Shown here: positions 10,985-49,958 of the stretch, piece after piece
Numbering within the stretch: position 1 is the stretch's first letter
Layout of the letters: every line of letters begins with the position of its first letter
IMG/VR virus record: IMGVR_UViG_3300025098_000001
DNA length: 64,000 nucleotides
Direction: 5' to 3' (one strand)
Origin: an uncultured virus (IMG/VR IMGVR_UViG_3300025098_000001)
Lineage: Duplodnaviria > Heunggongvirae > Uroviricota > Caudoviricetes
Made by a program: the position numbers and the translations under genes
Notes under the pieces: generated by a model
The model's input: only the letters and a program-made list of their open reading frames with translations
The model's database searches: none
What the model was told of the DNA's origin: nothing

Positions 10985-11578
10985 TTACAAACTGTTGGCG
11001 AATCTTTTCATAGTCACATTTATTCTATATCCAAATATTCTTGATTTTTTGTCATTAGCGTCAGTTCGGCTTCCAAGTATAAGATGTTTAATGTTTTCTT
11101 CTAAACTTCCTGCACTTCGGAACCAGCCCCTCCGGTTTGTTTCAATGATGTATCGCACTATCTTATAAAGGTTTTCTATTCTATCTCTACCAAAAGTAGA
11201 ACCCGAAGGCGCAACTCTCGCATTATCATTAGTTCGTCTATCGTCTTGTTTTGTTCTAATCGTAATTGACATTTCGTGAGTTTCGTTTCTTACAGACCAA
11301 TCACGAGTAGGATATTCAATGGTTTGAGAGTTTTGCATTACTGCAATAACATCTAAAGAAGGTGTAGAATTATCTCCAGCAGTTTCTCGTGCGGCACTAA
11401 TTCTTACTCTATTACCACCTCTTCCCGGTTTTGAATCATTACGAGTAGAACTCATATCTCGTATATCCATAATCTGTGGTTTAACTCTATGAATTGCGGG
11501 GATAGCACTACCTAATGCGGCTAAAGCAGTTTCCCAATATTCATCAAGCAATGTGACTAAATATGTGACTTCATCCAC
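10985..11578 (-). CDS. Putative tail completion/terminator protein
   Basis: Directly upstream of the tube gene; size and position. Confidence 0.45.
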   Translation of the reverse strand: MDEVTYLVTLLDEYWETALAALGSAIPAIHRVKPQIMDIRDMSSTRNDSKPGRGGNRVRISAARETAGDNSTPSLDVIAVMQNSQTIEYPTRDWSVRNETHEMSITIRTKQDDRRTNDNARVAPSGSTFGRDRIENLYKIVRYIIETNRRGWFRSAGSLEENIKHLILGSRTDANDKKSRIFGYRINVTMKRFANSL

Positions 11579-12341
11579 GGTTTCTTCGCCTCCTTAATTC
11601 TTCTTCTGTTCTTAATTCTACATAGTCTTCAGGATTCATAAATATTCCTCTTGCCCCTTCATCGTCTTGTAGATTGTATAAATGGTCATAGTAAGTATCA
11701 ATATCCGTAATATATAACTCGGATAAAGTTTCCCAATCTATTTCTGTATTTCCTTCTTTTATATCATCTATGGTTTCTTGTATAACTATTTCTATTGGTT
11801 GCACTTTACCTTCAAATGATTCTAAAATTCTCATAGCCTCATCAACAGTTCCTTCAATAACTGATTTTTCACTTGTAGAACCCGCATATTCTATAACTAT
11901 AAAATTATAAATAGCAGTTGCATATGTCTTTATTGCCTCGGTTCTTTTTTGGTAATTAGAATCAATAGTCAAGAAAAATTCAAGTATGGCATCTAAAAAT
12001 AAATCTATATCTCCAACAGTTGATTTTAAATCATGTTCTTTAATTATTGATTCATCAAATTGAGTATTAAACGCTAAGGCAAAATACGAGTTATCATAAA
12101 TCCAATAATCGTTTTCTATTCTTAAAATATTATTATCATAGTCGCTTTTTCTTATTTCAAATAATTTTTTGGCAATAGGAAAGTTGTCTAATAATCTACG
12201 CGGTTTTATATTAGAATAGGAAGAAGAAATAAGTTTTGGGTGTAATTTTATTCTATCTATTGGTGGGATTTTCGGCGGTTCAAAATCATCCGATAGTGGA
12301 TTATCCTTCGGTTCTATTTTAAGAATATCCCACCACTTCAT
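11571..12341 (-). CDS. Acidic hypothetical protein with WxxILK leader
   Basis: Starts MKWWDILK. Confidence 0.7.
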   Translation of the reverse strand: MKWWDILKIEPKDNPLSDDFEPPKIPPIDRIKLHPKLISSSYSNIKPRRLLDNFPIAKKLFEIRKSDYDNNILRIENDYWIYDNSYFALAFNTQFDESIIKEHDLKSTVGDIDLFLDAILEFFLTIDSNYQKRTEAIKTYATAIYNFIVIEYAGSTSEKSVIEGTVDEAMRILESFEGKVQPIEIVIQETIDDIKEGNTEIDWETLSELYITDIDTYYDHLYNLQDDEGARGIFMNPEDYVELRTEEELRRRRNRG

Positions 12342-12544
12342 TCAAACGCCTCCTCAATTCTTCTTTGAATAACTTGAACAACTTCTTGCTCGATAACCTG
12401 TTCCATTATCTCGTCGCTCATTTTCTCACCCAAAGTTCTTTCAGTGTAATCCTGTATATCCTCATTTTGCTGAACAACAGTTTCTAAAATACTTTCCATA
12501 TCAAGTTGAACTAAACGCATTTTTTCTAAAATTTTACGGAACAT
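12338..12544 (-). CDS. Small helical hypothetical protein (68 aa)
   Basis: ATG at 12544 (MFRKILEKM) overlapping the upstream stop; preferred over the longer track start. Confidence 0.6.
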   Translation of the reverse strand: MFRKILEKMRLVQLDMESILETVVQQNEDIQDYTERTLGEKMSDEIMEQVIEQEVVQVIQRRIEEAFE

Positions 12545-13808
12545 CTTTACGACCCCGCTTTCCTCTTTGAGGTTTAATGTTTGACATAGAAGTTTTTTTT
12601 CTTTTTCTTTCAGCAAGTAAATCTTTTAATTTATCTGCCTTTTCTTTTGCCTTAGCACCTAATTTAGCCGCTTCTTCTAAATTTAAATTCCTCGATTCTT
12701 GTTCTTCAGGTGGTTTTTCTTTAGGAACCAACATCGCCCTTTCTCTATCCCAGTAAGAATCAGGATTAGCGGCTTCTAATTGACGAATATTTTCTTCTTC
12801 TGTAAGTTCGCCTTCTTCTTTTTCCCTTAAATCATATTCTCTTTTTTCTTCAACATAAAATTCTTCTACTAAGTCTATAACTCGTTCTCTTAATTGGGCT
12901 TCAGTTTGTATTACCTCATCGTCAAATATTTGAACATTACCTTCAATTGTGGTAAAGTAATAGTCTCCTTCTTCTTCTACAAAATTAATAAAGATATATC
13001 TTCTATCTGTTTGTAAAGACCTAAAAGAAACATTGAGAGTAGCCTTATTATCTACAAAATCCCCATCAACTATTCTTACTGATGATTTACGACCATAAAT
13101 ATCTCTTGGGACAATGGTATTAAGACCTGCTCTTAAATCCCTTTTAAATGTCTCCCAATCTTTAAGTTTTAATCTGTCTCCTCTTCGAGTGCGAATTTTC
13201 TCAATGTCTATATCATCAGAATTTAGATTTCTTTTAACCATTGTGTCTATATTTCTTATATATTGTTGTGGAAAATATCCTCTATTTATAAAAGAACGCA
13301 TAAGCCTTTTATGTTTATACGATTTTGGTGCAGGTCTATCCGGTTCTAAAATTTTATATTCTTTTATATATTCCTCATAAATACTTTCTATTACATCATC
13401 TATGTCATATACATCTTGGTAGCCCGTTTTTTCCACATGTTCAAGAAGCAATCTTCTAAAAATGTCTCCTTTAACCTTTGGCTTTGATTTTTCAAGATTA
13501 TTTCGTTGGTCTAATTTAATCATTTTTTTACTTTGTTTACCGTCTATTATTCTTTCATATCCTTCAGGAAAATATTTACCAAAAAACCTTGTTAATTTTC
13601 TTTTCATAATTCTTAAATTCGATAACCCGGCATCCGGAAATTGTGCTTTATGCCTTGTTCTATATTCACTATATATACTATCTACTACATCTTCAATTAT
13701 ATATTCATTTTGATAATCCGTTTCTTCTACATATTCAAGAAGTAAATTTCTAATAATACTTCCTTTAAGTTTGGCTGTCTGCGTAGATTTGAGAATATCC
13801 GACCACAT
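12534..13808 (-). CDS. Hypothetical protein with WxxILK leader and tandem internal domain duplication
   Basis: GGTGA SD then ATG 13808 (MWSDILKS); two similar units (KGSIIRNLLLEYVE..YFP / KGDIFRRLLLEHVE..YFP). Confidence 0.75.
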   Translation of the reverse strand: MWSDILKSTQTAKLKGSIIRNLLLEYVEETDYQNEYIIEDVVDSIYSEYRTRHKAQFPDAGLSNLRIMKRKLTRFFGKYFPEGYERIIDGKQSKKMIKLDQRNNLEKSKPKVKGDIFRRLLLEHVEKTGYQDVYDIDDVIESIYEEYIKEYKILEPDRPAPKSYKHKRLMRSFINRGYFPQQYIRNIDTMVKRNLNSDDIDIEKIRTRRGDRLKLKDWETFKRDLRAGLNTIVPRDIYGRKSSVRIVDGDFVDNKATLNVSFRSLQTDRRYIFINFVEEEGDYYFTTIEGNVQIFDDEVIQTEAQLRERVIDLVEEFYVEEKREYDLREKEEGELTEEENIRQLEAANPDSYWDRERAMLVPKEKPPEEQESRNLNLEEAAKLGAKAKEKADKLKDLLAERKRKKTSMSNIKPQRGKRGRKDVP

Positions 13809-13813
13809 TTTAA

Positions 13814-14089
13814 TCACCAATCCTTACAAGCCATACAACGGGCTGAATAATCCGAACCTGTGCAAGTGCTACATTTATGCCTTGCGTTAAAGGATTTTTT
13901 ACGCTTAGTATTTCCACTCTTTCCCGTGACCTTAACTCCTGCTTGACCCCAATGAACTCTCTTGTATTTTCCCTTTTTACCTGCGGGAACACAAGCCATC
14001 CATTTCTTGCCTTTTCGATTAGAAGATGTTTTGCCTGTTCTTTTAGTGCATCTACCAGACTTTCTTTTTAGAATATCTTCCCATCCCAT
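13814..14089 (-). CDS. Small basic Cys/His protein with WxxILK leader
   Basis: GGAGTGA SD, ATG 14089 (MGWEDILK); VHWGQ..RKKSFNARHKC..ARCMACKDW module. Confidence 0.75.
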   Translation of the reverse strand: MGWEDILKRKSGRCTKRTGKTSSNRKGKKWMACVPAGKKGKYKRVHWGQAGVKVTGKSGNTKRKKSFNARHKCSTCTGSDYSARCMACKDW

Positions 14090-14093
14090 AAAA

Positions 14094-14951
14094 TCACTCC
14101 GTTCCCTCGTATAAATAATAGTCACCAAACTCGTGTTCTGCCAACCAATTATCATGGTCTATTGCATCACTAATAACATACTTTAATGTTTTTTCTTTAA
14201 ACCCGTCTATTTTATTTCCTGCATCAATAAAGTTTTGCATTCCTGCCGCACCGCCTTCATCTTTCAATACCTTTTTAATAAATTTAACATAAGCATTATA
14301 TTGTGCGTTTCTTACAGCAGGAACTTTAGCCTTAGTGACTTCTTTACCATCGCAACCACAACCGCAACCAGAATCCATATCTTCTATATCATCATCATCT
14401 TCAATAACTATGTTTGTCTTAATACCGGGAAATCTTCTATTAAACTCTTTTATATCTTCTTTGTTTTTTGGCTGTTTTCCTTCAGGAGTTTGCATTAAAA
14501 TATGTTTAATTTTGTCCGAAAGAGTAGGGTTATTTTCAAACTCGTTATCGGCTACAACTTCTTCTATGTCTTCTTCCATTTGCGAACTTATTTTATTAGG
14601 TTTTACTTTACCGTAATCCTTTGCTTTGATAATTTCATATGTGGTTACTTTAGATACTCTACCAAGTTCTCCAAGTTTTCCATCTCTAACTAATTTATTA
14701 ATTACAGGTTTGATTTGACCTGTAAATTTATGACTAAGAAATTGAGCAAAACCCGCTAATCTTCCGTCTTCAACCTCGGACCACTCATTTCTCATGTATT
14801 GAATAATTTTTTTTCTATCTCCTTCAATATCACGAATAGTCACTCTTTCCAATGGGCTATTTTCTATATAATTACTAATACCCTCATATACTTTTTGTCT
14901 GTATATAGGGTAATTTACTCTACTACTTCCCTTTAATATTTCTTCCCACAT
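14094..14951 (-). CDS. Multi-domain hypothetical protein with WxxILK leader
   Basis: ATG 14951 (MWEEILKG); GCGCGC segment; IIKA and VTKA linkers. Confidence 0.7.
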   Translation of the reverse strand: MWEEILKGSSRVNYPIYRQKVYEGISNYIENSPLERVTIRDIEGDRKKIIQYMRNEWSEVEDGRLAGFAQFLSHKFTGQIKPVINKLVRDGKLGELGRVSKVTTYEIIKAKDYGKVKPNKISSQMEEDIEEVVADNEFENNPTLSDKIKHILMQTPEGKQPKNKEDIKEFNRRFPGIKTNIVIEDDDDIEDMDSGCGCGCDGKEVTKAKVPAVRNAQYNAYVKFIKKVLKDEGGAAGMQNFIDAGNKIDGFKEKTLKYVISDAIDHDNWLAEHEFGDYYLYEGTE

Positions 14952-14952
14952 A

Positions 14953-18764: not shown

Positions 18765-18774
18765 TTACACCACC

Positions 18775-19248: not shown

Positions 19249-19293
19249 AGTATCTCCTCTTATTTATCGTTAAGAAGCATTAGGTATTAAACC

Positions 19294-19614: not shown

Positions 19615-19623
19615 GGGTTCACC

Positions 19624-19980: not shown

Positions 19981-19991
19981 ACTAAATCACC

Positions 19992-21197
19992 TCATTGAAG
20001 GTCAATTAACTTGCCTTGTCCACGCACATAAGTACACATTGTTTCACCGATAGTTCGGTAAAGTCCACGGTGTCCTAATTTTCCATGACCGAAAACTTCC
20101 TTAGTGTTCATACCTGCTTCAAAGTATTCAGTAGGCTTCATAGTACACATAAACAAATGGTCGGTGTCAAGAAGTAGAATATCGGAAAGACCGCTTCCAC
20201 CTGTTGGCATATCCTTACAAGGAATGATAGGAATGTCGTGATAGGTAGCAACCTTAAATCCGACTTCTCTTCCCTTAACTCCCTTAATACCACTGTGAGA
20301 AGGAACAACTTCTGTTCGACCCATGAATCTTTCTTGGGCTTGGAGAAGTTCTCCTAATGCTTGAATGGTGTCGTATCCAGTAAGGAAAACCTTTGGTTGT
20401 CCACCACGAGCCATCAAATTTCGCAAAGCAGTATTAAGCATATTAACAGTCAAGTTACGAGCAGTTCCCGAATTTGAATCAACATATGCTTCAAGGAATT
20501 CTGTTCCCGACGAAGCACGAGTTTGTCCAAAAATAGTCAATGGGTTTGCAAGATTACTTACTCCATTCAATTCTGCGTAAGTTGAAATAATTTGGTAAAG
20601 TGAAGTCAAAGAATTACCCTCAGTAGTATAACCCGAAGCAGTAAGTCCTGATGAAGTTAGGTCAGTAAGAACCATCTTGTTCATTGCTTCTGCGTGTGAA
20701 ATACCAACTTCTTCTCGGTAAGTAGACATAATATCTCCAATACCGTCATCCATTCCGCCAAGAAGTTGAGCAACTTCCGAAAGTTCGAAAGTGTGTGCAA
20801 TAGTCTTAGGCGAAAGGTGAAGATTAGCAAAGGTTGGGTTAATTGCAGAAATACCTGAAATACTTGCGTTTTCTGCTGTGCCCCCAAGGTCGTCTAAATC
20901 CGAAACCACGAAAGTATCAAGATTACCACCAAGAGAACGACCCTTCAAAACTCTCCAACCACTTGACTTCCACGGCTTCTTAGGAAGCATTGAAAGTGCG
21001 TTAATTTCTCGGTTAATCATAGACCAAACTTTTTGTCCATAAACCAAGTTATACAAAGTAGCATCTCCACCGGAAAGTGCGCCATCGTGAGCCACATGAA
21101 TACCCGATGTGACTGCTTTCATTAAGTTATCACTTCCACCGGATAGTCCGTAAGTCGCTCGCTCTAAGTCTTCAATTGTTCTAAAATATCCTGTCAT
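19992..21197 (-). CDS. Major capsid protein (HK97 fold)
   Basis: Follows protease-scaffold; GAGGTG SD, ATG 21197 (MTGYFRTIEDLERATYG); YGQKVW..IN, LPKKPW..SGWRV, TYHDIPII, QGKLIDL resemble halo/magrovirus MCPs. Confidence 0.9.
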   Translation of the reverse strand: MTGYFRTIEDLERATYGLSGGSDNLMKAVTSGIHVAHDGALSGGDATLYNLVYGQKVWSMINREINALSMLPKKPWKSSGWRVLKGRSLGGNLDTFVVSDLDDLGGTAENASISGISAINPTFANLHLSPKTIAHTFELSEVAQLLGGMDDGIGDIMSTYREEVGISHAEAMNKMVLTDLTSSGLTASGYTTEGNSLTSLYQIISTYAELNGVSNLANPLTIFGQTRASSGTEFLEAYVDSNSGTARNLTVNMLNTALRNLMARGGQPKVFLTGYDTIQALGELLQAQERFMGRTEVVPSHSGIKGVKGREVGFKVATYHDIPIIPCKDMPTGGSGLSDILLLDTDHLFMCTMKPTEYFEAGMNTKEVFGHGKLGHRGLYRTIGETMCTYVRGQGKLIDLQ

Positions 21198-21198
21198 T

Positions 21199-22386
21199 TT
21201 AAGCACCTCTGTTGTATTTGTCCATTAGTTCGTGAACTTCATTCCAAGACATTTCGGAAATGTTGGAGAAGTCCTCGCTTAGTGTAGCCGAAGCATTTTG
21301 GACTTCTGCGGCCTTAGCGATTGTATTGTTCTCAAGAGATTTCTTGAGTTGTGAAAATTCTTCCTTAAGTGAAAGAACTGCGTCTGCGGCATTAAACTTT
21401 GACTTAGCAATTGCATCAGCCTCAACCTTAAGTTCGTTATTATATCGTGCTTCAAATTCAGCCTTAATAACTTCATAAGCACGAGCCTCTTCTCTTTCAG
21501 CCTTAAATTGTTCGTAAGCCTTTTCGATGTTTGCGTTTGAAAGGTCAAGAGTTTCAATATCCTCGGACTTGTGTTCTACAAATTCTCGGAAATCTTCGGA
21601 CTTCATTTCTTCATCCTTACTACCCATTTTATCTTTCATACCCATTTTTTCTTCATCGTCTTCATCATCTGCTTTCATTTCTTCGTCTTTATAGTCTCCC
21701 ATTTCGACGGACTCCTCTCCTTCATCCATCATCTCAAGTTCTTCCTCTTGGTCAAGAGTGTCCATTGTATTCTTGAGAACCGTGGATTCACGGAGTTCAG
21801 CCATTACTTCATTAAACTCGTTAAGAGCCTTTTCTATTTCTGTGTTCATTTTCTTATCCTCCTTTATTAGGTTAAATTTTGCTTCAGGGTTAATGCCCTC
21901 TTCGCATATGGTGATTTCATGCAATTCAAGTTTATCAATTTCTTTATAACTACCGGTATCGGAGTCATATCTATTTGTCTTGTTTATTGCCTGTCCACCT
22001 ATTGAAAAAGAGCGAAGGTTGCCTTTTCTTATATCTCGTGCAACCTCTTTAGCCTTTTCAATATCATTTCTTAATTTTATCACTACAAAAAACCCTGTAT
22101 CATCAACGCCTGTTTTTAGGACTTTACCATTGGAATCTGTATATTGGTCTACTACTTCACCGACTTGAACATTAGAATGAGTAATCATAACATTTCTATA
22201 TCGGTCTTGTTTCATAAACTTGTCAGCCGCTTCACGAATTGCACCCAAAGTAATCTTATCATTTTGCTTATCTACTACATCAACTGATGCGTAGCCCGCA
22301 ATAACGCATTCGTTATTTGCTTTAAGAATTACGAGTTCTCCGCCACTATTTGGTTCATTACCAAACATAGGTGTTTTCAACTGCAT
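21199..22386 (-). CDS. Prohead protease (HK97-type) fused to acidic/coiled-coil scaffold
   Basis: IAGYASVDVVDKQND, MITHSN, RSFSIGG, LHEITIC..GINPEA motifs; C-terminal E/D/K-rich helical domain. Confidence 0.9.
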   Translation of the reverse strand: MQLKTPMFGNEPNSGGELVILKANNECVIAGYASVDVVDKQNDKITLGAIREAADKFMKQDRYRNVMITHSNVQVGEVVDQYTDSNGKVLKTGVDDTGFFVVIKLRNDIEKAKEVARDIRKGNLRSFSIGGQAINKTNRYDSDTGSYKEIDKLELHEITICEEGINPEAKFNLIKEDKKMNTEIEKALNEFNEVMAELRESTVLKNTMDTLDQEEELEMMDEGEESVEMGDYKDEEMKADDEDDEEKMGMKDKMGSKDEEMKSEDFREFVEHKSEDIETLDLSNANIEKAYEQFKAEREEARAYEVIKAEFEARYNNELKVEADAIAKSKFNAADAVLSLKEEFSQLKKSLENNTIAKAAEVQNASATLSEDFSNISEMSWNEVHELMDKYNRGA

Positions 22387-24519: not shown

Positions 24520-24524
24520 TACCC

Positions 24525-38714: not shown

Positions 38715-38719
38715 TCATT

Positions 38720-40619: not shown

Positions 40620-41042
40620 TTACTTGTCCTTCAATTGGTCTCGAAGACAAAATAAATCTTCAAATATTTCTTTATTAATTCCCATAAGACTATTGTATGC
40701 AGACACAATTTGAGGTTCAAAATCCGTGTCTGGAGAATTATCTGCCCTTTTAATTAACACTATTAAATCTTTACAAATCTGTATCATTTCCTCAAATCTA
40801 TCAATTCGTAAATCCGTATCAATAATACAATCATCTTCTTTTTCCAAAGTAGTTTGACCTTTACGCTGGGCAACCTTTAATCGTTTGTCTTCACGCTTTT
40901 TTCTTTCGGATAAAGATTTGTCAGCCTTCTCCTTCTGCCTCACCGCTTCTTCAATCGGGTCAAGATTAGCAATACTTTCACCGGCTAAAGTTCTTTGAAA
41001 ACCAAACTTGGTTTGCTTTTTCTTTAGACCGTCTTTCCACAT
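40620..41042 (-). CDS. Hypothetical protein with W-leader
   Basis: ATG 41042 (MWKDGLKK). Confidence 0.65.
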   Translation of the reverse strand: MWKDGLKKKQTKFGFQRTLAGESIANLDPIEEAVRQKEKADKSLSERKKREDKRLKVAQRKGQTTLEKEDDCIIDTDLRIDRFEEMIQICKDLIVLIKRADNSPDTDFEPQIVSAYNSLMGINKEIFEDLFCLRDQLKDK

Positions 41043-41046
41043 ATTC

Positions 41047-41811
41047 TCACTTCCTCTTACCTTGATACATCTTGTCAGCATTACGGGGTTCTATATTTTT
41101 TATACCCTTATGTAGTGAAGCCCCTCGAACATTACAGCGAACTAATGTGACATTTCTTACTACTGCAAGTTTAGATAAATCTACACCCCTAAAATCACAA
41201 TCCTCAAATGTTACATTTGTCATCTTAGCCCCATTAAAATTAGCACGACTAAAGTTGCACAGTTTAATTACACCTGAAGGGTCTTCTTTTCGATAAAAAC
41301 CAAACTGTGCTTGTCTAAAACTAGAGTTCTTAAAAGAAACCTTCTTTAATCTAATAGGAGTTCTTTTCTTACCAGTTTTCATTGTAAATTTACCTTTACC
41401 ACTTGGTTTAGGTGTAGGTTTAGTTAAGTCTAATTCATATTCATCTTTCTTTCTTTGCCCCGCTTGGGCTACACCTTCAAATTTAGAACGACCAGTTCGA
41501 CCATATTTATTACTCTCCCTTGCTTCTTTGGGTGTGACTCTTTGTTCTACTAAACGACCTCTATCATCTCTCTTAGGAGGATATTCCATCTCGGTATATT
41601 TTGTTTCTTTTTGATTACTCATATCTTTACCGTTAAATATTTCTTTATCAAAACTTTTATTATCCATTATTAAATATTCACCTGCGGGTAGTGTGCCGCT
41701 AAACTTTTCCTTTCTGTTAACGAAACCTTCAACATGGCCGTCGTCGGAAACCTTACGCTTTTTGGCCTCAATTTTATCCCACTTTCTTTTTAATATATCT
41801 TGCCAACTCAT
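41047..41811 (-). CDS. Basic protein with WxxILK leader and C-terminal pentapeptide repeats
   Basis: MSWQDILK; VSFKNSSFRQAQF, CNFSRANFNGAKMTNVTFEDCDFRGVDLS. Confidence 0.75.
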   Translation of the reverse strand: MSWQDILKRKWDKIEAKKRKVSDDGHVEGFVNRKEKFSGTLPAGEYLIMDNKSFDKEIFNGKDMSNQKETKYTEMEYPPKRDDRGRLVEQRVTPKEARESNKYGRTGRSKFEGVAQAGQRKKDEYELDLTKPTPKPSGKGKFTMKTGKKRTPIRLKKVSFKNSSFRQAQFGFYRKEDPSGVIKLCNFSRANFNGAKMTNVTFEDCDFRGVDLSKLAVVRNVTLVRCNVRGASLHKGIKNIEPRNADKMYQGKRK

Positions 41812-42647
41812 TTTCCTTTCCTCCTTTTGTAAGTTTTACAGGCCGCACAGGTAGGGCGGCATCTTCTCTTTCTACCCTTTGAAGCATCTTTTCTTCCACA
41901 AGGCTTAGGTCCGTTTTTCTTTCCACATGAAGAACAGTCAATCCATCCTCCCTGTGTTTTCTTTCCTTTACCTTCTTTTCCGCCTCGTCGAGAAAACCAC
42001 CCATGTAAGCCTTCGGACTTCTCTCTCTTAAAGTTATCGCCACTTTGTAGAATATCTTCCCAAGATTTAGAAATATCTAAATACGCATCAGCAAGCATAA
42101 GTCCTACCTTTTTACCTGCTTCTATATCACTTGGATAATGATTTCCCATTTGAACACGGGAGAGAGAAATTGAATCTGCCATAGTATTAAGTTCCTTTTT
42201 CTTATCGGGGTATTTCTCACCGAGAACTTTAGCCAACGCATATGCTTCAATAGCGTGGCCGCTTGGAAAAGAAGGTGTGTCATCCGTATTTGTAATAGAC
42301 TTAATTTTATCCGAGATTTCATAGGGTCGCTTTCTACCGTATTTCATTTTAAGTCGTATGGTATGAATATCCACATCATCTATAAAATCCCCCCATTCGG
42401 ACATTTTCTCTCCAACAATGTCGAGCATCATTTTATGATTATTTTTATCTAAGTCGTTAATAGTTTTTTTATCTAAGTCTTGACCTTCCATAATTTTTAG
42501 AACCTTTGGTAGTTCTTCTTCGTTATCGGGAAATGAAAGTTTAGGAATGTCTACTTCAAAAGAAGGTTCGGAATCAAGAAGTTTTTGCTTACTCGCAGAA
42601 AGACTATTCATCCATTTGGATTCTTCCTTGAGTATTTCCCGCCACAT
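41808..42647 (-). CDS. PAP2/class A acid phosphatase fused to a basic Cys-rich domain, with WxxILK leader
   Basis: ATG 42647 (MWREILKE); K-x6-RP (KMKYGRKRP), PSFPSGH, SRVQMGNHYPSD catalytic motifs. Confidence 0.85.
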   Translation of the reverse strand: MWREILKEESKWMNSLSASKQKLLDSEPSFEVDIPKLSFPDNEEELPKVLKIMEGQDLDKKTINDLDKNNHKMMLDIVGEKMSEWGDFIDDVDIHTIRLKMKYGRKRPYEISDKIKSITNTDDTPSFPSGHAIEAYALAKVLGEKYPDKKKELNTMADSISLSRVQMGNHYPSDIEAGKKVGLMLADAYLDISKSWEDILQSGDNFKREKSEGLHGWFSRRGGKEGKGKKTQGGWIDCSSCGKKNGPKPCGRKDASKGRKRRCRPTCAACKTYKRRKGK

Positions 42648-42651
42648 GTTA

Positions 42652-42864
42652 TCACTTCTTTTTTGAATTGCCCCAATTAGCCGCACCCTTTTTACGACAT
42701 TGAACTAAAGCACCGGAAGCATAAGCGGAAGGCCATTTTTTATAACGACTTCTTACCTTGCGATAACAAGCGTCTTTTTTTGCCTTAGATTTCTTTTTCT
42801 TATATTGCTTACTACCCTTTTTTCGTCGGGCTTTACTTTTTTTACGCAATGTATCGAACCACAT
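42652..42864 (-). CDS. Small very basic protein with W-leader
   Basis: GGGGTG SD, ATG 42864 (MWFDTLRK); KDACYRKV..WPSAYASGALVQCRK..NWG module. Confidence 0.75.
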   Translation of the reverse strand: MWFDTLRKKSKARRKKGSKQYKKKKSKAKKDACYRKVRSRYKKWPSAYASGALVQCRKKGAANWGNSKKK

Positions 42865-42865
42865 G

Positions 42866-43069
42866 TTATACACCCCTAATATTATATTTTCTAATAACAT
42901 TTCTTAACGCAATTCGTTTTTTAGAATTACTATCTGCTCGTGAAATAAGAGGGTTATTATATTCTTTTTTATATTCTTTAACTTGTTCAGGATTAAAGTG
43001 GTAGGTCTTACCATCAACGGAAAATTTTTTACCGATAATTTTAATCTTTAAAATCTGAAACCATTGCAA
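42866..43069 (-). CDS. Small basic protein with WxxILK leader
   Basis: TTG start, (M)QWFQILK. Confidence 0.6.
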   Translation of the reverse strand: MQWFQILKIKIIGKKFSVDGKTYHFNPEQVKEYKKEYNNPLISRADSNSKKRIALRNVIRKYNIRGV

Positions 43070-43070
43070 G

Positions 43071-43292
43071 TTAATCCCTCGCAGTAAATGGACCTCTACG
43101 ATTTGAGTCCTTATATTCAGTCTTCATTGGACAATTAGGTTTTATCGGTAAGGCTGGTAAGTTCATAGGACATGGTTGCCAAGTTTTAACACTTCTATTA
43201 CATCTACGACAAACGCCTGTTTTTTTAACACCGTTTTCCATAGTTCTTACTTGTTCAGGTGTAAGGTTTTTAGTAATGTCTGTCCATGTCAT
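43071..43292 (-). CDS. Small Cys protein with W-leader
   Basis: ATG 43292 (MTWTDITK); CRRC..CP..CP. Confidence 0.65.
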   Translation of the reverse strand: MTWTDITKNLTPEQVRTMENGVKKTGVCRRCNRSVKTWQPCPMNLPALPIKPNCPMKTEYKDSNRRGPFTARD

Positions 43293-43297
43293 AATAA

Positions 43298-43510
43298 TCA
43301 CATCAAATTGTCTGCTGCTTTAAGCGCCAATTCTTCTGCTTGTGATAAAATAGCGATAATTTCTTTCAATTCGCCTCTTTCATTTCCTTTTAACTTTTCA
43401 GCATATTCTATTGCATATTGAATCCTGTTCTGTAATATGCCTAATTTATTAAAAAGGTCTTCATCATCAGGCATTCCGTATTCTTTCTTAATTGTATTTT
43501 TCCATGTCAT
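43298..43510 (-). CDS. Small helical protein with W-leader
   Basis: GGAGTGA SD, ATG 43510 (MTWKNTIKKE). Confidence 0.65.
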   Translation of the reverse strand: MTWKNTIKKEYGMPDDEDLFNKLGILQNRIQYAIEYAEKLKGNERGELKEIIAILSQAEELALKAADNLM

Positions 43511-43712
43511 TTTTCTCACTCCATAAGTTTTTCCATAATTTATGTCTCTCGTAATTTTCTTCTAAGTAGTCGATAACCTCGTCTTTCGACGGCGCGTTAT
43601 AACCAAGACTGTCTGTAAGGTGTTTATAAATGTTTTCAAATAAACTGTCCTCGGTTATATAAGAATCCAGCATTTCACGCCAATCGAGTTTAAGAATATT
43701 TTCCCAACTCAT
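43488..43712 (-). CDS. Small protein with WxxILK leader
   Basis: MSWENILK. Confidence 0.7.
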   Translation of the reverse strand: MSWENILKLDWREMLDSYITEDSLFENIYKHLTDSLGYNAPSKDEVIDYLEENYERHKLWKNLWSEKNDMEKYN

Positions 43713-44068
43713 GTGTTTTCCCCCCTAAATTTCAATGCTTCACTAATCGCATCAATTATCCCTGCAACTGTGTTATAGAAAAGTGTATTGCCGTCTTCAA
43801 ATGCTTCATCATGCCCTTCGTCTTCCATAAATTCTTCCTGCTTTGCGCCAATTTTTCTTAACAAAGTAATTAATACACCTTGAGTTCGTTCTTCCGAATA
43901 CATAGGACTTTCTAAATAATCTATTAAATGAAATATAATACCTATAATTGAGTTCGGTTGGTTTGCATCACCAATATAACGAGGTGGAAAGTATTCTACA
44001 ATTTCTCTACGAAGGTCTTCAAATAGGGCCGTTGGGTCGTCAAATTTTAAAATGTCTTGCCACTTCAT
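43709..44068 (-). CDS. Acidic protein with WxxILK leader
   Basis: MKWQDILK; GGGGTGA SD. Confidence 0.7.
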   Translation of the reverse strand: MKWQDILKFDDPTALFEDLRREIVEYFPPRYIGDANQPNSIIGIIFHLIDYLESPMYSEERTQGVLITLLRKIGAKQEEFMEDEGHDEAFEDGNTLFYNTVAGIIDAISEALKFRGENT

Positions 44069-44697
44069 CGCCTCTCACCCCTTTTTAACTTTATTACAAA
44101 GGATTCAAAAATTCTTCTAACGGTAGGTTCTATAACTTGAATAAGTGCTTCCATAACCATAGGGATTTTTTCTGGCTGCATATTTGCCGCTCCCATTGTT
44201 CCTATAATTCTTGCCTCAAAAGAAGATAAAATAAATTGAGCAAATCTATTTCTACCTTCTCGTGTTTCAAAATTTCTCTCTAATGAGTAGGCCTGTGTTT
44301 CTATTGCCATTTCTTGTTCTAAATATGTTTTTATAGCATTTCCTATGTTAAATTCTACATCATCTAATGCTCTTACCAACATATTTATAGATAAGTTTTG
44401 GATAGGTGTTTCTCTCACACTTAATACAAAGGAAATAATAGCATCTCCAGAGGTATCAACAATTTCCCTCATTATTGGTTCCGTATTAAATTGGGCTTCA
44501 TGTGTTGATTCATGTGCTAATACTAAGGCAAGTTTCTCCGGTGTCACATTAGGATTAGGAGAAATAACAGTTTCTCCGGTCGCTGTGTTATAACTGGCAG
44601 TTTCTCCCATAAGACTTTCACCCATTCTAATTCTCGGTGCAGGTCTATCACGGTCTACCGGCTTGAAAGAAATTTTTAAAATATCAAACCAATTCAT
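44065..44697 (-). CDS. Putative zincin metallopeptidase with WxxILK leader
   Basis: MNWFDILK; ASYN..GETVI, VLAHESTHEAQ (HExxH), downstream ETQAY. Confidence 0.65.
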   Translation of the reverse strand: MNWFDILKISFKPVDRDRPAPRIRMGESLMGETASYNTATGETVISPNPNVTPEKLALVLAHESTHEAQFNTEPIMREIVDTSGDAIISFVLSVRETPIQNLSINMLVRALDDVEFNIGNAIKTYLEQEMAIETQAYSLERNFETREGRNRFAQFILSSFEARIIGTMGAANMQPEKIPMVMEALIQVIEPTVRRIFESFVIKLKRGERR

Positions 44698-45356
44698 GCT
44701 AATCTCTCTGCAATATCATCTCGTATCTCAGTCCATACTTCGGGGTATCTTTCAATAAGAACCTTTTGTATAACTTCAATCTGTTGAATCACCACTGTTT
44801 CTTCTCGCTTATGTACTAATTTGCCCTTAAATTCGAGCGCATACTTTAGCGACTCACGAATTTCTTTACTAAGTTTTACTAAAGAATCCACTGTCTTGAA
44901 ATCTAAATCTTCATTGTCTAAAATAAATTGTTGAATCTTACCCTGCAACATTGAAACATTTTGCGAAAGTAGGTCAATTTCATTTAGTTCTACACGGGCT
45001 ACATCTAATGCCGCCGATTGTTGAACGATAGGTTTGAGATGTTTTTTCATATGTAGGTTAATTGAATCGACTCCGACTTCTAAATATTCTGCAACCCTGC
45101 TCGGTTTCATATGTCCATCTACAATTGCCGCTTCTAAATCCTTTCTATTTGGCGCAACACATAAAGCACACTTATCATTTGAATCATCGTGATACGCATT
45201 CAAATGTTCCTGCATATGTTTTCTTGTAGTTCCGGCTCTCCAACCTTCTTCTCTATCAAGAGCATTGGCATCCATGCGCCCTTCAAGAATTTCTATTTCT
45301 AAGTTATCCCTATCAGGATGATTACAAAGAGGACAAGACTTACGAATTTTACGCAT
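44694..45356 (-). CDS. Putative terminase small subunit (tandem Zn-finger/HTH repeats plus coiled coil)
   Basis: CPLCNHPDR..RKHMQEH and CALCVAPNR..LHMKKH repeats, then a helical region; resembles TerS-like proteins of archaeal viruses (inference). Confidence 0.5.
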   Translation of the reverse strand: MRKIRKSCPLCNHPDRDNLEIEILEGRMDANALDREEGWRAGTTRKHMQEHLNAYHDDSNDKCALCVAPNRKDLEAAIVDGHMKPSRVAEYLEVGVDSINLHMKKHLKPIVQQSAALDVARVELNEIDLLSQNVSMLQGKIQQFILDNEDLDFKTVDSLVKLSKEIRESLKYALEFKGKLVHKREETVVIQQIEVIQKVLIERYPEVWTEIRDDIAERLA

Positions 45357-45894
45357 TGTCAATAGCCTCTCTTAATTGTCTCTTAAATAAATTACCACTT
45401 TGCATACCATAAGTAGTGGTATCACCAAATGCTATCGTAACTGGTCCTGCTAATATTTTAAAACCGGGATATTGAGTTAAGGTGAACATAATATAATCAT
45501 CACCTAATGAGGCGTTATCCTGCATAACTTGACCGGAGTTATCTAATAAATCCTGCTGTCGCTTTCTTTCTTCTTCTGTAAGGTTTTCTCCAGCCGCCGT
45601 TCTTTCGGTAAATTCATTTAATTCTAATATTTCTTCATTAGATAGTGGAGTTTCTTCTGTCATACCAACGCCCTGCGAACCACCACTGGTAAATCCGGGG
45701 GTTAAATGTAGATGGAATTTATCTTCAGTAAAAATTTCAATAAACCCTTCAATGAGTTCAACGAGTTCTTCATCATCCGATTCATTAATTATTCTTTCCA
45801 ATAAGGGTAAATGATATGACAATATATCTTTATACGCTTTAATAATCGACCACCAATTTCCACTACTATTTAACGGGCCTCTACTGTTGTTCAC
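45349..45894 (-). CDS. Hypothetical protein with near-N-terminal WWSIIK motif
   Basis: GGTGA SD; NWWSIIKA at residues 13-20. Confidence 0.65.
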   Translation of the reverse strand: MNNSRGPLNSSGNWWSIIKAYKDILSYHLPLLERIINESDDEELVELIEGFIEIFTEDKFHLHLTPGFTSGGSQGVGMTEETPLSNEEILELNEFTERTAAGENLTEEERKRQQDLLDNSGQVMQDNASLGDDYIMFTLTQYPGFKILAGPVTIAFGDTTTYGMQSGNLFKRQLREAIDNA

Positions 45895-47012
45895 TTTATC
45901 ACCTTCATTAAATTGCTAAATGCTTCCATGGCATCGAGTTGCTTGAGAGTAATTCCATCTCCCTCGGTGCTTCCGGGAACTTTGAATGTTTCCATTTGTT
46001 CACCCATAACGGCACGAACAACCGCATTAAGAGTTTTATTACTCTTAGGAAAACGCATTGTAATATTATTTATTTTTTCGTAATTAACCACTTCGTCAAT
46101 CTCAACACGCTCACCTTCAATTTTGACAGTGCAGGTATCTACAAGTATTGCGAGGTCTGAAGAACTAATGTTAAATGTTTTATTTCTCACCGCATCGTTA
46201 AGTCTACTTTTTACGGGGAATCTTCTACCTTTTGTGTAAATAGTTCCATCAGCCATAACTTCTCGTATTGCTTTATTTAATCCGGCTACCGTAGCCAATC
46301 TTTCTGCTGTTCTTGAGCCTAAATTAGCATTAACATCAATTTTTATAGGTGCTGAACCCGGCCCCATACTCTTTTCAACTATTTCTTTAATATCAGCAAC
46401 CAAACTTTTTAGGCTATTTTTTTCACCTAAGATTGCTTGCCAAAGTGGAGGCTTTGCTTTGTTTTGAGGTGGCTCGCCACCTTCTTTAGAAAAAGCATAC
46501 CATTCGGGTTTAGGCTTTTCACTTGCGAAGGCTTCGTTAATTTTCTCCGCTTTCCATTGGCGGTATTCCCAATACGGGACTGTCAAAAAATGACCCGCTA
46601 CCACACCTCTTTCTATTTCAGGTTCATCATCTTCACCTGCCGGAGGTTTAAAAGAAATCATAGTTCTAAATTTAATATTTGCGGGATTACGACCCGGCCT
46701 TGTTTCTATTCTCGCTAAATCTCTTTCCATGTCATCAAAATCAAGAAGGTCTTCTTCGAGGAAGGTTTCTCTCTCCAAGAAAGATTTGAGTTTTTCTAAA
46801 ATTGCTCCGCCACCTGAAAAGTCTATATTTTTTCTTGACATTCCTACACGGCCATGATTTTCTACCGAAAGATAAACAGACTTAGCATTAACCTTTCCAG
46901 TGTTGGCATCCGGCCTACCTGTAATGCCGAATTGAGAATTTTTACTTGGTCCCCAAAAAGCCTTATATTCTTCAAGTAATGCTAATGCACCTTCTCTATC
47001 CCATTCAAACAT
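45891..47012 (-). CDS. Hypothetical protein
   Basis: Likely ATG 47012 (MFEWDREG) overlapping the upstream stop. Confidence 0.65.
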   Translation of the reverse strand: MFEWDREGALALLEEYKAFWGPSKNSQFGITGRPDANTGKVNAKSVYLSVENHGRVGMSRKNIDFSGGGAILEKLKSFLERETFLEEDLLDFDDMERDLARIETRPGRNPANIKFRTMISFKPPAGEDDEPEIERGVVAGHFLTVPYWEYRQWKAEKINEAFASEKPKPEWYAFSKEGGEPPQNKAKPPLWQAILGEKNSLKSLVADIKEIVEKSMGPGSAPIKIDVNANLGSRTAERLATVAGLNKAIREVMADGTIYTKGRRFPVKSRLNDAVRNKTFNISSSDLAILVDTCTVKIEGERVEIDEVVNYEKINNITMRFPKSNKTLNAVVRAVMGEQMETFKVPGSTEGDGITLKQLDAMEAFSNLMKVIK

Positions 47013-48603
47013 CTTCCTCTTCCTCCTCACTGAAGGTGGGTCGATGTAGAGTTTCAAAACCTTCGCTTTGCGAAGTCGTTGCTTCCTTTGCCAATTTTAA
47101 TAATTCCATTACAGACAAGGGTATTCCTAATTTTTTACCATCGGAAATAAAACTCTTTAAGGCAGATTCCCAATCCTCGGACTTTGTATTAGAGGTTTTT
47201 CTAAGATAGTCTGTCCACTTCATATTAATAGGGAGAACGGATTTACTACTTAAGTTCTTTGTAATTCCGCCTTCATCCTGTTCGACCATTTCCCCGTTAA
47301 CAAGTTCGTATTTTTTTCCATTCCATTTAATCCAATATTCCCCGTCTTTCTTATAATCAAATAAACCTAAAACATTATCTTCAGGTAATTCCCATTCTTC
47401 TATTGCGTTCATAATAAATTCTTCTTCGGACATTTCACTAAGATTATAAATTTCTTCTATATTATCAGTAAAATTACCATCATCGCCTAAATATCCACCT
47501 TTACGGTCGGACCATAAATCTCCCCCTAAATTTACATATTCTAAATAGTCGTAAACTTCATACATATCCTCTTCTAAATATTTAACTATAAATTTAATAA
47601 AATCAACATCTTCCGATAATATCTCTCTCACCTCATACAAACCCATCTCATCACCGTCTTCGTCATATAACATATTATTGGAAATAAATATTTTGTCGTT
47701 ATCTGTATCTTCTAAAATTGATTCAGGGTCTCCTCTTACGGTTAAATCATATTCATTAGGGAATTTAAGCCTAAATAATTTATTTTCCTGTAAAAACATG
47801 TCACCCACGACATGCCTAAAATGGGGGTTAAACACACCATTAGGACCTTCTTCATCTTGAACTTCTTCGTCTGCTTGAAACCTTGGTTCAAATCTTATAT
47901 CCGTAAGTTGTGTTGTTGCAGTACAATTTTCACACTGATACCCCTCATCCGATATAGAAAATTCATTAAAATGCCCACAAACTTGACATTGGAGTTCTTG
48001 CCAATCGGACATATAATCCGTAAGACCTTCAACACTTTCGCTCGTTGATTCATCGTTAAGTAGACCTAATGCTAAACCCAATAGATTATCTCCAGCAGGT
48101 TTTCGTTCATCTATTTCTATACAAATAGAATAACCCTCATAAGTTCTTACCTCATAACAACCACTGGATTTTAAACTCGAAGAAAGAATTGTATATTGGT
48201 TTGTCGAATCTCCAATAATTTCAAAACCCGCCCCTATGTCTATTATTTCGTCTATAGGTTCTATAACTTCATAAAACCAATTTAAAGAACGAAAGGTGGG
48301 CTTTACACTTTCAACAACCCTTTTTTTGTAGGCATCTAAATTTTCGGAGCGACCAAATTCACCTTTCACTTTGTCGAGAATACTGTCTAATCTTATATCT
48401 TCACTCTCTACTAAACATGCTATATCTGACCCACCATCTCTTTTTTTAACCCTAAGAGATACCATACCCCTACCCAGAGAAGAATATAGATATGAGAAAT
48501 GTGTTACTTCCCATTCTCTATGTTCCCCTTCTATCGCTTCCTTCGCTGCTTTTATAACATCTTCACGCTTAATAACTCCCTTTAATATATTTTGCCAATC
48601 CAT
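47005..48603 (-). CDS. Acidic multi-domain protein with WxxILK leader and Zn ribbon
   Basis: MDWQNILK; ICIE..GD..LALGLLND motif; CQVC..CENC; second MKWTDYLRK near the C-terminus. Confidence 0.75.
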   Translation of the reverse strand: MDWQNILKGVIKREDVIKAAKEAIEGEHREWEVTHFSYLYSSLGRGMVSLRVKKRDGGSDIACLVESEDIRLDSILDKVKGEFGRSENLDAYKKRVVESVKPTFRSLNWFYEVIEPIDEIIDIGAGFEIIGDSTNQYTILSSSLKSSGCYEVRTYEGYSICIEIDERKPAGDNLLGLALGLLNDESTSESVEGLTDYMSDWQELQCQVCGHFNEFSISDEGYQCENCTATTQLTDIRFEPRFQADEEVQDEEGPNGVFNPHFRHVVGDMFLQENKLFRLKFPNEYDLTVRGDPESILEDTDNDKIFISNNMLYDEDGDEMGLYEVREILSEDVDFIKFIVKYLEEDMYEVYDYLEYVNLGGDLWSDRKGGYLGDDGNFTDNIEEIYNLSEMSEEEFIMNAIEEWELPEDNVLGLFDYKKDGEYWIKWNGKKYELVNGEMVEQDEGGITKNLSSKSVLPINMKWTDYLRKTSNTKSEDWESALKSFISDGKKLGIPLSVMELLKLAKEATTSQSEGFETLHRPTFSEEEEEDV

Positions 48604-48604
48604 A

Positions 48605-49270
48605 TTACCACCTTCCTAATATTTCTTTAGGTTCTATTGCTTTAGCAAGCCAGAAATTGAGACCATTTATATCAAGTTCCTTGATTCTGTATATAGGCAA
48701 TTCTTCATAAAATGAATCAGGTAATCTCCGTTCCTTGTAAAGTTGAATAAGAAAAGACCTTTTATACTTTTTTTCACTGGTATCATAAACATATGAGTCC
48801 ACGGAATATTCATGTCCTGTATATGTCGCAAAGGCGACGAATTTTATAATGTCAGGGACAACATTATTTTTTACCGCATACACTAAGGTAGTTAAAAAAT
48901 CACCATTTGTCATATCACTGGTAGCCTTCACACATACATTTTTATCCCCTACTTGAATATAATTATCATCAGAAATATCACCTAAACCATTTAATCTTTG
49001 AGAAATAGTACACCTTTCCCCAAATACTTCAAAAGAATATAAGACAGTTCTTTTGCCTAATCCTATGAAATCTATATCATCTTTAATGGGTCTCATAAAT
49101 TCTAAAGTCCTTACTAAAGGTTTTAAGCGTTCAGGTGTTATTACTCTAAATTTTTCAGCAATATGATTTATTTTTATATTAGGGTCAAAAAAATGAACAT
49201 TATTTACATATTCGTCTACAAGTTTATCTCGCCCTTCCTCTTCCGACTTTAAAATATCTTGCCAACCCAT
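48605..49270 (-). CDS. Hypothetical protein with WxxILK leader (paralog of 49272-49958)
   Basis: MGWQDILK; RTLEFMRP, CVKA..MTNGDF, ends EILGRW. Confidence 0.8.
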   Translation of the reverse strand: MGWQDILKSEEEGRDKLVDEYVNNVHFFDPNIKINHIAEKFRVITPERLKPLVRTLEFMRPIKDDIDFIGLGKRTVLYSFEVFGERCTISQRLNGLGDISDDNYIQVGDKNVCVKATSDMTNGDFLTTLVYAVKNNVVPDIIKFVAFATYTGHEYSVDSYVYDTSEKKYKRSFLIQLYKERRLPDSFYEELPIYRIKELDINGLNFWLAKAIEPKEILGRW

Positions 49271-49271
49271 A

Positions 49272-49958
49272 TTACCATCCCTCTAATAATTCTTCAGGTA
49301 TGTATTCCTTTAACCATTCGTTTAAAATATTCAATGGTATTTCGCCATCATTATTATTATTTAAAACGGGCCAGTCTATTTCATCAAGACCTAATACATG
49401 TTCCCATATTCTTTCTAAAAGTGTGTCCTTGTATGAGTGTTCATTTATATCATAAATATGTGTATCGTTGTGCATTTTAGTTTCCGGCATGTGTCTTTCT
49501 ACATATGCTGGAAGAGTAAGAATTGTAGGTAATTGGTTATTTTTACTTGCGAGAAGAAGTGTAACCATAAAATCCCCATTTGTCATCACCCTATTAGCCT
49601 TTACGCAAAAACTCATTTGAGTTGAGTCCATTACCGGGAAAGTATCTTCAGCCCTTTCACCAATACCTTTTACAGTCAACCCAGCCGGTAAAACCGGCAT
49701 TTTAAATGTAAAAGGCACTCCATATATATCGAATTTAAAAACAAAATCTAAACCATCTCTCTCAATTTCATCAAAGGGTTTCATAAATTCTAAAGTTCTT
49801 TTATAAACAAGGGGTTTAGTGCTGTAATACATAGATGAAAGAAACATGTCTTCTTCTTCTTTAGTTATTTCTCTTATTGGTGTAAATTCTCGAAATGAAA
49901 TTAGTAACTCTTGGGCCAAATCATGGTCTTTATTCTTTAATATATCTCGCCAACCCAT
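49272..49958 (-). CDS. Hypothetical protein with WxxILK leader (paralog of 48605-49270)
   Basis: MGWRDILK; RTLEFMKP, CVKA..MTNGDF, ends ELLEGW. Confidence 0.8.
   Translation of the reverse strand: MGWRDILKNKDHDLAQELLISFREFTPIREITKEEEDMFLSSMYYSTKPLVYKRTLEFMKPFDEIERDGLDFVFKFDIYGVPFTFKMPVLPAGLTVKGIGERAEDTFPVMDSTQMSFCVKANRVMTNGDFMVTLLLASKNNQLPTILTLPAYVERHMPETKMHNDTHIYDINEHSYKDTLLERIWEHVLGLDEIDWPVLNNNNDGEIPLNILNEWLKEYIPEELLEGW

Follow-up and report, generated by a model that had tools for sequence, protein, structure and literature searches.

A short N-terminal tag on mostly unrelated late proteins of a group-B-type magrovirus resembles the C-terminal motif of the virus's own scaffold

Why should nineteen proteins of one virus, most of them unrelated to each other, begin with the same few residues? 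The question is raised by a stretch of 64,000 nucleotides (nt) from an uncultured tailed virus (IMG/VR record IMGVR_UViG_3300025098_000001), which we call the window at its full length. An initial annotation had noticed the peptide W-x-x-I-L-K at the N-terminus of 19 late proteins of the window, and had read it as a packaging tag, cleaved after its lysine, that loads a modular set of effectors into the head for injection. Comparison with related viruses now suggests that the tag is an address label copying the capsid-docking helix of the virus's own scaffold, and we hold this address function to be rather probable. The fuller version, in which the label is also cleaved after the Lys and its bearers are delivered into the host, is put forward more tentatively from the same comparisons. 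Each of the 19 coordinates gave the expected peptide, always on the minus strand. The tagged genes are as follows (aa, amino acids; pI, isoelectric point):

11571..12341, minus strand: 256 aa, MKWWDILK
12534..13808, minus strand: 424 aa, MWSDILK
13814..14089, minus strand: 91 aa, MGWEDILK, basic (pI 10.5); sub-threshold DUF5754 match
14094..14951, minus strand: 285 aa, MWEEILK
25186..27675, minus strand: 829 aa, MWETILK; between portal and protease, with tagged orthologs in relatives G002 and G003
40620..41042, minus strand: 140 aa, degenerate MWKDGLK
41047..41811, minus strand: 254 aa, MSWQDILK; pentapeptide repeats
41808..42647, minus strand: 279 aa, MWREILK; fusion of a PAP2 phosphatase domain and a basic Cys-rich domain
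42652..42864, minus strand: 70 aa, degenerate MWFDTLRK, very basic (pI 10.9); phrog_727, sub-threshold DUF5872 match
42866..43069, minus strand: 67 aa, TTG start, (M)QWFQILK, basic (pI 10.3)
43071..43292, minus strand: 73 aa, degenerate MTWTDITK, basic (pI 9.9)
43298..43510, minus strand: 70 aa, degenerate MTWKNTIK
43488..43712, minus strand: 74 aa, MSWENILK; orthologs in three of the four complete relatives, all tagged
43709..44068, minus strand: 119 aa, MKWQDILK
44065..44697, minus strand: 210 aa, MNWFDILK; weak, sub-threshold match to DUF6782, a putative metallopeptidase (E 5e-4)
45349..45894, minus strand: 181 aa, NWWSIIK at residue 13 (nt 45838-45858), after a 12-residue extension
47005..48603, minus strand: 532 aa, MDWQNILK
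48605..49270, minus strand: 221 aa, MGWQDILK; paralog of 49272..49958
49272..49958, minus strand: 228 aa, MGWRDILK; paralog of 48605..49270

In 18 of these genes the tag stands directly at the start codon, ATG in 17 cases and TTG in one (43069), while in the gene that begins with GTG at 45894 it stands at residue 13. The extension ahead of this last tag (MNNSxGP.N.SG) is itself conserved at the protein level in two complete relatives. A free N-terminus is therefore not needed by the tag, which fits a docking peptide. The consensus is M-x(0-1)-W-x-[DEN]-I-L-K, with the core W-x-x-I-[LI]-K in 14 N-termini and four degenerate tags (WKDGLK at 41042, WFDTLR at 42864, WTDITK at 43292 and WKNTIK at 43510). 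A six-frame scan of the window found the core pattern 17 times, 15 of these one or two codons past a start codon, and a looser pattern 38 times, 20 of them following a start codon. In 200 shuffles, the loose pattern occurred on average 10.7 times overall and 1.04 times (maximum 5) after a start codon, which rules out a chance origin of the tag. We set aside as a probable chance match a plus-strand open reading frame (ORF) of 48 codons (50680-50826, MEWFGILK...), whose remainder is hydrophobic and which is also present in a near-identical contig (L180/L181).

The conservation of the tag is at the level of the peptide. Among 18 tags, Ile is written ATT (10) or ATA (5), Leu is written TTA (8), CTA (3), CTT (2), CTC (2) or TTG (1), and Lys is written AAG (9) or AAA (8). 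This synonymous variation, already pointed out in the initial annotation, means that the RNA sequence is not what is conserved. When the first 36 residues of 90 tagged proteins were aligned, the Trp was invariant and the Lys present in at least 90%, with a mean column identity of 17% and conservation confined to the tag. The 19 window proteins, 67 to 829 residues long, add up to 4,403 residues. Their bodies had been described as unrelated apart from one paralog pair; most of them indeed are, but the pair (48605-49270 / 49272-49958) is not the only relation, as the basic Cys-rich domain with which the PAP2 protein (41808-42647) ends recurs in the 70-aa protein (42652-42864). No membrane helix was predicted in any of the 19 proteins and, with no hydrophobic stretch, a membrane or secretion signal was discarded.

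Regarding what these proteins might do, only two of the 19 passed Pfam cut-offs, with PAP2 and pentapeptide matches. Hence, two of the functional labels given earlier, phosphatase and pentapeptide protein, stand above the Pfam cut-off, while the peptidase label corresponds to the sub-threshold DUF6782 match. Among 51 tagged proteins scanned in the relatives, two had a Pfam match at E<=0.001, neither of them above Pfam's own cut-off. A PDB sequence search with the 829-aa tagged protein gave 0 matches, and the ESM Atlas returned no usable match for it. Calling the tagged proteins effectors is a guess.

Searched against 1.84 billion representatives, the PAP2 protein gave 5,477 matches at E<=0.001; the tag was present in 12 of the best 150 homologs, all 12 within the 48 best-scoring, and the more distant homologs whose N-termini were inspected have different openings, with no tag. 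The last ~85 residues of this 279-aa protein form a module that is found elsewhere as stand-alone tagged small proteins, and the fusion junction holds a decayed internal tag, KSWEDILQ (nt 42045-42068). Since the junction keeps the tag of the downstream module, the tag is a property of the individual gene module and moves along with it. As a separate observation, the 532-aa tagged protein (47005-48603) has internal tag-like sites near its C-terminus, MKWTDYLR (residue 461) and EDWESALK (residue 476), which are kept in its G002 and G003 orthologs.

The tag is limited to one arm of the genome. Of the 48 minus-strand genes listed in the window, 19 are tagged. As had been claimed, the core structural proteins are free of it, namely the large terminase (TerL), the portal, the prohead protease, the major capsid protein (MCP), and the tube-like and tape-measure-like proteins, and none of the 31 genes called on the other strand of the window has it. 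The restriction of the tag to a morphogenesis block holds as far as the strand goes, but the block upstream of the terminase (40620-49958) that accounts for 14 of the 19 tagged genes is without any recognised morphogenesis gene, so that 'structural-arm strand' is the more accurate description.

In order to know how far the tag extends in related viruses, we searched IMG/VR with the capsid protein, which gave 183 related stretches, of which 79 loci were kept. These held 91 strict tag matches in open frames, 78 of them after a start codon, and the 60 matches listed were all on the strand of the capsid gene. Four complete or near-complete relatives (88-93 kilobases (kb), with MCPs 49-83% identical to that of the window) were compared as genomes. 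With the same crude gene caller, 22 of 125, 18 of 133, 18 of 122 and 15 of 120 called genes were tagged in the relatives and 15 of 82 in the window, where the caller missed four small tagged genes; over the five genomes, about one gene in seven carries the tag. Taking the replication arm as the internal control for tags at N-termini, we found tagged genes on the MCP strand and on the other strand, respectively, in 15/51 and 0/31 cases in the window, and in 22/71 and 0/54, 18/66 and 0/67, 18/66 and 0/56, and 15/73 and 0/47 cases in the relatives, with Fisher p values from 6e-4 to 9e-7. An equally common motif at the N-termini of early or host genes had been named as an observation that would speak against a packaging tag; the replication arm has no tagged gene in any of the five genomes.

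The 88 tagged proteins of these genomes, with their first ten residues removed, fell into 52 of 310 BLAST families. Together with the tag-only conservation seen in the alignment, this rules out the expansion of a single gene family. Orthologs retain the tag, and the few family members scored as untagged carry decayed versions. The tag is kept in relatives down to ~47% MCP identity; a profile search for more distant capsid relatives returned, as its best 80 loci, sequences that were all at least 54% identical. We also scanned IMG/VR with a DNA pattern of the tag, which matched at least 134 stretches. Of 80 loci examined, 51 had one or more tag-led ORFs and 38 had at least two, the densest reaching nine in 5 kb; the remaining 29 were lone matches without a tag-led ORF, probably due to chance. 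Some of the tagged arrays (L177, L202) encode cargo without BLAST relation to the five genomes. According to these results, the modular nature of the tag, its conservation as a peptide and its restriction to the structural arm, all deduced at first from one window, hold across relatives. Beside these arrays, locus L095 (G005) contains at 11931-14546 four tandem paralogs of ~205-225 aa in which the tag is part of a longer common opening, MWF.I[IL]K..LL.KPKTQLR, and there is a similar array in L202; the L095 paralogs look like a locally amplified tagged family.

What, then, could such a tag bind? In tailed viruses, it is by its C-terminal end that the scaffold attaches to the capsid protein, on the inner face, and in P22 the extreme C-terminus of the scaffold is the capsid-protein-binding element. 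In the window, the scaffold is fused to the protease and lies next to the capsid gene:

19992..21197, minus strand: MCP (HK97 fold family; SU10_MCP, phrog_24667), ORF 19992-21206 taken from the ATG at 21197
21199..22386, minus strand: prohead protease (Peptidase_S78, residues 23-177) fused to an acidic helical scaffold region, 395 aa
21229..21252, minus strand: scaffold C-terminal motif MSWNEVHE (residues 379-386)

Among distinct protease-scaffold C-termini, 41 of 42 hold a motif [ML]-x-W-x-[DE]-[VIAL]-[HN] about 12-15 residues from the end, between flanks that diverge. In the 42-sequence alignment W381 is invariant (42/42), and E383 and H385 are conserved at 90% or more; four more distant viruses, found by way of the tag-pattern scan and with protease-scaffolds ~50% identical to that of the window, have MEWSDIHK, MDWSEIHK, MDWSDIHK and MDWNEIHL at this place. 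We built a position matrix from the 88 tags and compared the scaffold motifs by it with the 129,715 internal 8-mers of the five genomes. The first rank would go to a scaffold motif from another clade, MSWDDIHK, and ranks 2, 3 and 5 to MDWSDIHK, MEWSDIHK and MDWSEIHK; MDWNEIHL would rank 166. Going by these ranks, tag and scaffold tail represent one kind of motif, with M-x-W-x-[DE]-[IV] as the common part. The tagged proteins thus have a motif in common with the C-terminus of the virus's own scaffold, as is expected from scaffold mimics.

Structure prediction added little to this comparison. The AlphaFold2 model of the protease-scaffold had a mean predicted local distance difference test (pLDDT) of 46.5, with only residues 281-350 and 381-390 reaching ~72-81, and gives a weak hint of two long helices followed by a last helix beginning at W381 (pLDDT ~72 there). 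In the tag, the W, I and L are spaced i, i+3, i+4 and would fall on one face of a helix. The MCP model (32-row alignment; mean pLDDT 39) was unusable, and a PDB sequence search with the MCP gave 0 matches, so that neither it nor a relative has a solved structure there. A complex prediction of the MCP (32 rows) with the tag region (36 residues, 90 rows) scored 0.00, which in a run without controls is no answer and bears neither way. The positions common to the tag and the scaffold motif vary too little for a co-variation analysis.

A second resemblance concerns the end of the tag, whose L-K is missing from most scaffold motifs and whose final Lys is near-invariant (84 K and 4 R of 88). Two sites of similar sequence were found in the head proteins:

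21117..21128, minus strand: NLMK, MCP residues 24-27, followed by Ala; candidate maturation cleavage site, K27 invariant in 32 of 32 aligned MCPs
21862..21873, minus strand: NLIK, residues 172-175, at the protease/scaffold junction; candidate cleavage site, K175 invariant

Of 48 distinct N-terminal variants of the MCP, 47 have [ILV]-[LM]-K-[AS] at the first site (residues 25-28), with N-D-I-L-K-S in one distant virus, and the second reads F-[ND]-[LI]-[IVL]-K-[EQ] among relatives. We then counted conserved sites in 41 families present in at least four of the five genomes (12,657 aligned residues): only four strictly conserved [DENQ][ILVM][ILVM]K sites exist, spread over the protease-scaffold, the portal and a 460-aa protein encoded between TerL and portal. 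The ones in the portal (30737-32395, minus strand; residues 128-131) and in the 460-aa protein (32398-33780, minus strand; residues 58-61 and 94-97) may be further protease sites or merely structural. The HK97 protease is the archetype of the Pfam family Peptidase_S78, to which the protease of the window also belongs. Cutting after Lys, which the initial annotation had named for HK97, agrees with the reported processing of the HK97 capsid protein at K103/S104 (PMC10275583). Cleavage of the tag after its Lys fits these conserved sites, without their being a proof of it.

Putting these observations together, the tag appears to be tied to head assembly by two independent sequence links, both supported: the scaffold C-terminal motif on the one hand, and the [DN]-I-L-K type sites at the MCP N-terminus and at the protease/scaffold junction on the other. 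We propose that the tag, in its first half (M-x-W-x-[DE]-I), copies the motif conserved at the protease-scaffold C-terminus, that tagged proteins would use the docking place of the scaffold tail, most likely the capsid protein's inner face, and that they would be co-assembled into the procapsid beside the scaffold. With less confidence, the S78 protease would then clip the tag after the Lys, freeing the cargo inside the head, and the same protease would remove the N-terminal 27 residues of the MCP and part the protease from the scaffold. The cargo would have two parts, a small conserved set of large proteins encoded inside the structural module and a set of small soluble proteins that changes fast, whose genes lie upstream of the terminase and which includes several very basic members (pI 9.9-10.9). 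In its fullest form, which is possible but less likely than not, the tag would be a two-part 'dock and cut' signal made of the scaffold docking helix (M-x-W-x-D-I) and the MCP maturation site (D-I-L-K), loading more than 50 unrelated families, about one gene in seven, for delivery with the DNA into marine group II archaea; fused cargo with an internal tag would be cut apart in the head like a small polyprotein.

Several observations weigh against this proposal. The scaffold motif of the window itself, MSWNEVHE, ranked only 169 with the tag matrix, and has only the first half of the tag in common, without the L-K. The residue after the tag Lys varies (K13, I11, N11, S9, R9, E8, G6, A6... of 88), and it is Ala or Ser at the MCP site and Glu or Gln at the junction site, so that a common cut site is not established. 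Also, [ILV][ILVM]K is found inside the folded protease domain (FVVIKL, invariant K104), and hence the tripeptide alone is not diagnostic; the conserved-site count was post hoc, and the MCP site fails its strict P4 rule. The Lys could be a binding residue instead, by analogy with the RIIK motif of phage 80alpha discussed below. The tagged set is large, with some of its genes among neck and tail genes, and some members may be structural parts rather than cargo. Finally, in the 50-100 kb region of HVTV-1, the closest cultured relative by MCP, three of 69 coding sequences have a W at residues 2-5 and none of them is tag-like.

One could argue that what the tag and the scaffold C-terminus both bind is a partner other than the capsid protein, such as the portal, the protease domain, the scaffold itself, the GroEL-type chaperonin of the virus or a host factor, so that late proteins would be organised without any need to dock on the shell, and perhaps without being packaged. 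The sequence evidence leaves room for such a partner, as it identifies the motif and not its receptor. Relatives do encode Cpn60 and Cpn10, but we know of no chaperonin that chooses its clients by a terminal tag, which counts against a chaperonin receptor. The chaperonin genes also lie in the replication arm, and the magrovirus paper ties chaperonins to replication proteins (PMC5434244). A receptor other than the shell has a precedent in the capsid-targeting sequence (CTS) of T4, which directs proteins into the scaffolding core and not onto the shell (PMC3012670); against it, the extreme C-terminus of the 80alpha scaffold is a capsid-protein-binding element (PMC6893505). On balance we consider a partner other than the capsid protein unlikely, although it is the alternative that survives best.

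Slightly less likely again is that the tag is only a propeptide, removed after the Lys by the viral S78 protease or by a host protease to activate or time the late proteins, with no packaging involved. The model would be the Prp protease, which takes an N-terminal leader off ribosomal protein L27 as well as off the capsid and scaffold proteins of 80alpha. The near-invariant Lys at the end of the tag would be well explained in this way, and so would the similar [DN]-[IL]-[ILVM]-K sites at the MCP N-terminus and at the protease/scaffold junction. Left unexplained are the facts that the W-containing half of the tag is the most conserved, that this half is common with the scaffold C-terminus, and that in most clades the matching scaffold position has no Lys. 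Besides, prohead proteases of the S78 family act inside the procapsid, so their propeptide substrates would be there anyway.

Least of all do we expect the tag to be an expression-level device of late genes, whose first codons or nascent peptide would tune translation initiation or protect from N-end degradation with no role in assembly: the motif is almost always at the gene start (78 of the 91 strict matches in the 79 related loci) and is limited to one transcription arm, but its codons vary synonymously, it is conserved near the scaffold C-terminus, at residue 13 in one family and internally at a fusion junction, and the most highly expressed late genes (MCP, portal, tube-like) are without it.

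An address label for the head has to be seen in the context of the virus that carries it. Genes of the window run on the minus strand from ~50.5 kb to 1 and on the plus strand from ~50.6 to 64 kb. The following features complete its layout, those of the minus strand being identified by Pfam/PHROG-type profile matches:

6163-8070, minus strand: tape-measure-like protein
8692-10968, minus strand: tail-tube-like protein
22423-24528, minus strand: ATP-dependent DNA ligase, 701 aa
30737-32395, minus strand: portal
33755-35170, minus strand: large terminase (TerL)
58555-58628, plus strand: tRNA-Arg(TCT), one of the tRNA pair given for group B magroviruses
59132-59216, plus strand: tRNA-Leu(TAA), the other of this pair

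Group B magroviruses are described as having an MCP akin to those of haloarchaeal siphoviruses, a GroEL-type chaperonin, ribonucleotide reductase (RNR), and tRNA-Leu and tRNA-Arg (PMC5434244). The MCP of the window has 28-30% identity with its counterparts in the haloarchaeal siphoviruses HCTV-1, HVTV-1 and HCTV-5, and the tRNA pair is present; the complete relative G002 (92 kb) encodes PolB, Cpn60 with Cpn10, RNR and nucleases on the arm opposite the structural arm. With the MCP kinship and the tRNA pair found in the window, and the chaperonin and RNR in the relative, the virus is a head-tailed, group-B-type magrovirus, and archaeal. By the same reasoning its host would be a marine group II archaeon, to which Philosof et al. 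assigned the group B magroviruses (PMC5434244). Two further genes of this layout are worth a mention in their own right. The gene of the 701-aa ligase lies within the head module, with the tagged 829-aa gene on one side and the protease on the other, an odd site for a replication or repair enzyme. Beside the tube-like gene, a 124-aa protein (8272-8646, minus strand) has a weak, sub-threshold Pfam match to APOBEC2 (cytidine-deaminase-like; E 0.0034).

To our knowledge, neither magroviruses nor their hosts are in culture. Magroviruses belong to the archaeal viruses that are most abundant in the surface ocean (PMC5434244). If the tag marks the contents of the head, the virion-delivered proteins of an entire order of uncultured viruses could be listed by a simple sequence rule; such proteins are likely first-strike tools against host defences. 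The 'dock and cut' set, if real, would exceed, relative to genome size, the virion-borne protein repertoire known for any other tailed virus. A head-loading tag would also mean that archaeal tailed viruses evolved a T4-like loading of cargo on their own, from the docking peptide of the scaffold, and would provide a natural short peptide with which proteins could be loaded into a shell of HK97 fold. We found no description of the tag in the literature on magroviruses, main genome papers included and supplementary files aside, and no publication that joins capsid targeting and archaeal viruses.

So, in order to contextualize the proposed address label, we compared it with four known systems. In encapsulins, cargo of various kinds is attached to the inside of an HK97-fold shell through a short terminal peptide, and we predict the like for the tag. 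Those peptides are usually C-terminal and uncleaved, and encapsulins are cellular compartments without portal, terminase or DNA, whereas the capsid gene of the window is flanked by genes for TerL, portal, prohead protease, tube-like and tape-measure-like proteins. HK97 is closer in terms of its protease, which is of the same Pfam family. Duda, Oh and Hendrix reportedly found in 2013 that the C-terminal tail of this maturation protease directs the enzyme into the procapsid, so that a terminal peptide would be an encapsidation signal there too; unlike the magroviruses, HK97 has no separate scaffold and no tagged cargo family.

The likeness to a scaffold end is best matched by phage 80alpha and its satellite, in which the 80alpha scaffold and the SaPI1 protein CpmB bind the same site of the capsid protein through a common C-terminal RIIK motif (PMC6893505). 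There, as in our case, a short motif is copied from the end of the scaffold, and RIIK also ends in hydrophobic-hydrophobic-Lys. The difference lies in the scale and the form: a single hijacker protein alters the capsid size in that system, while here dozens of the virus's own proteins carry the motif, at their N-terminus and with an invariant Trp, and their binding is only predicted.

As for loading as such, the closest comparison is with the CTS of the T4 internal proteins IPI-III and Alt. Both are short N-terminal peptides on otherwise unrelated, fast-evolving proteins, and both viruses mature their heads with a prohead protease. A T4-type tag ends in the cleavage motif of the head protease, one that the capsid and scaffold proteins use too; here [DN]-[IL]-[ILVM]-K recurs at MCP residues 24-27 and at the junction, with a variable follower and with an occurrence of the [ILV][ILVM]K tripeptide within the protease fold. 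The cargo of T4 includes anti-restriction proteins. Its protease is of the gp21 type, and both the CTS sequence and the Glu-directed cutting differ from W-x-x-I-L-K; the protease of the window matched Peptidase_S78 and XkdF-type models and head-maturation-protease PHROGs instead. Other differences are the archaeal host, the resemblance of the tag to the C-terminus of the virus's own scaffold, and a far larger share of the genome (~1 gene in 7, with 52 families counted over five genomes), all of it known here from sequence alone. The T4 CTS is reported to load diverse internal proteins into the prohead, foreign proteins among them (PMC3012670). By analogy, the tag of these magroviruses would work like the T4 CTS without being a member of the T4 system.

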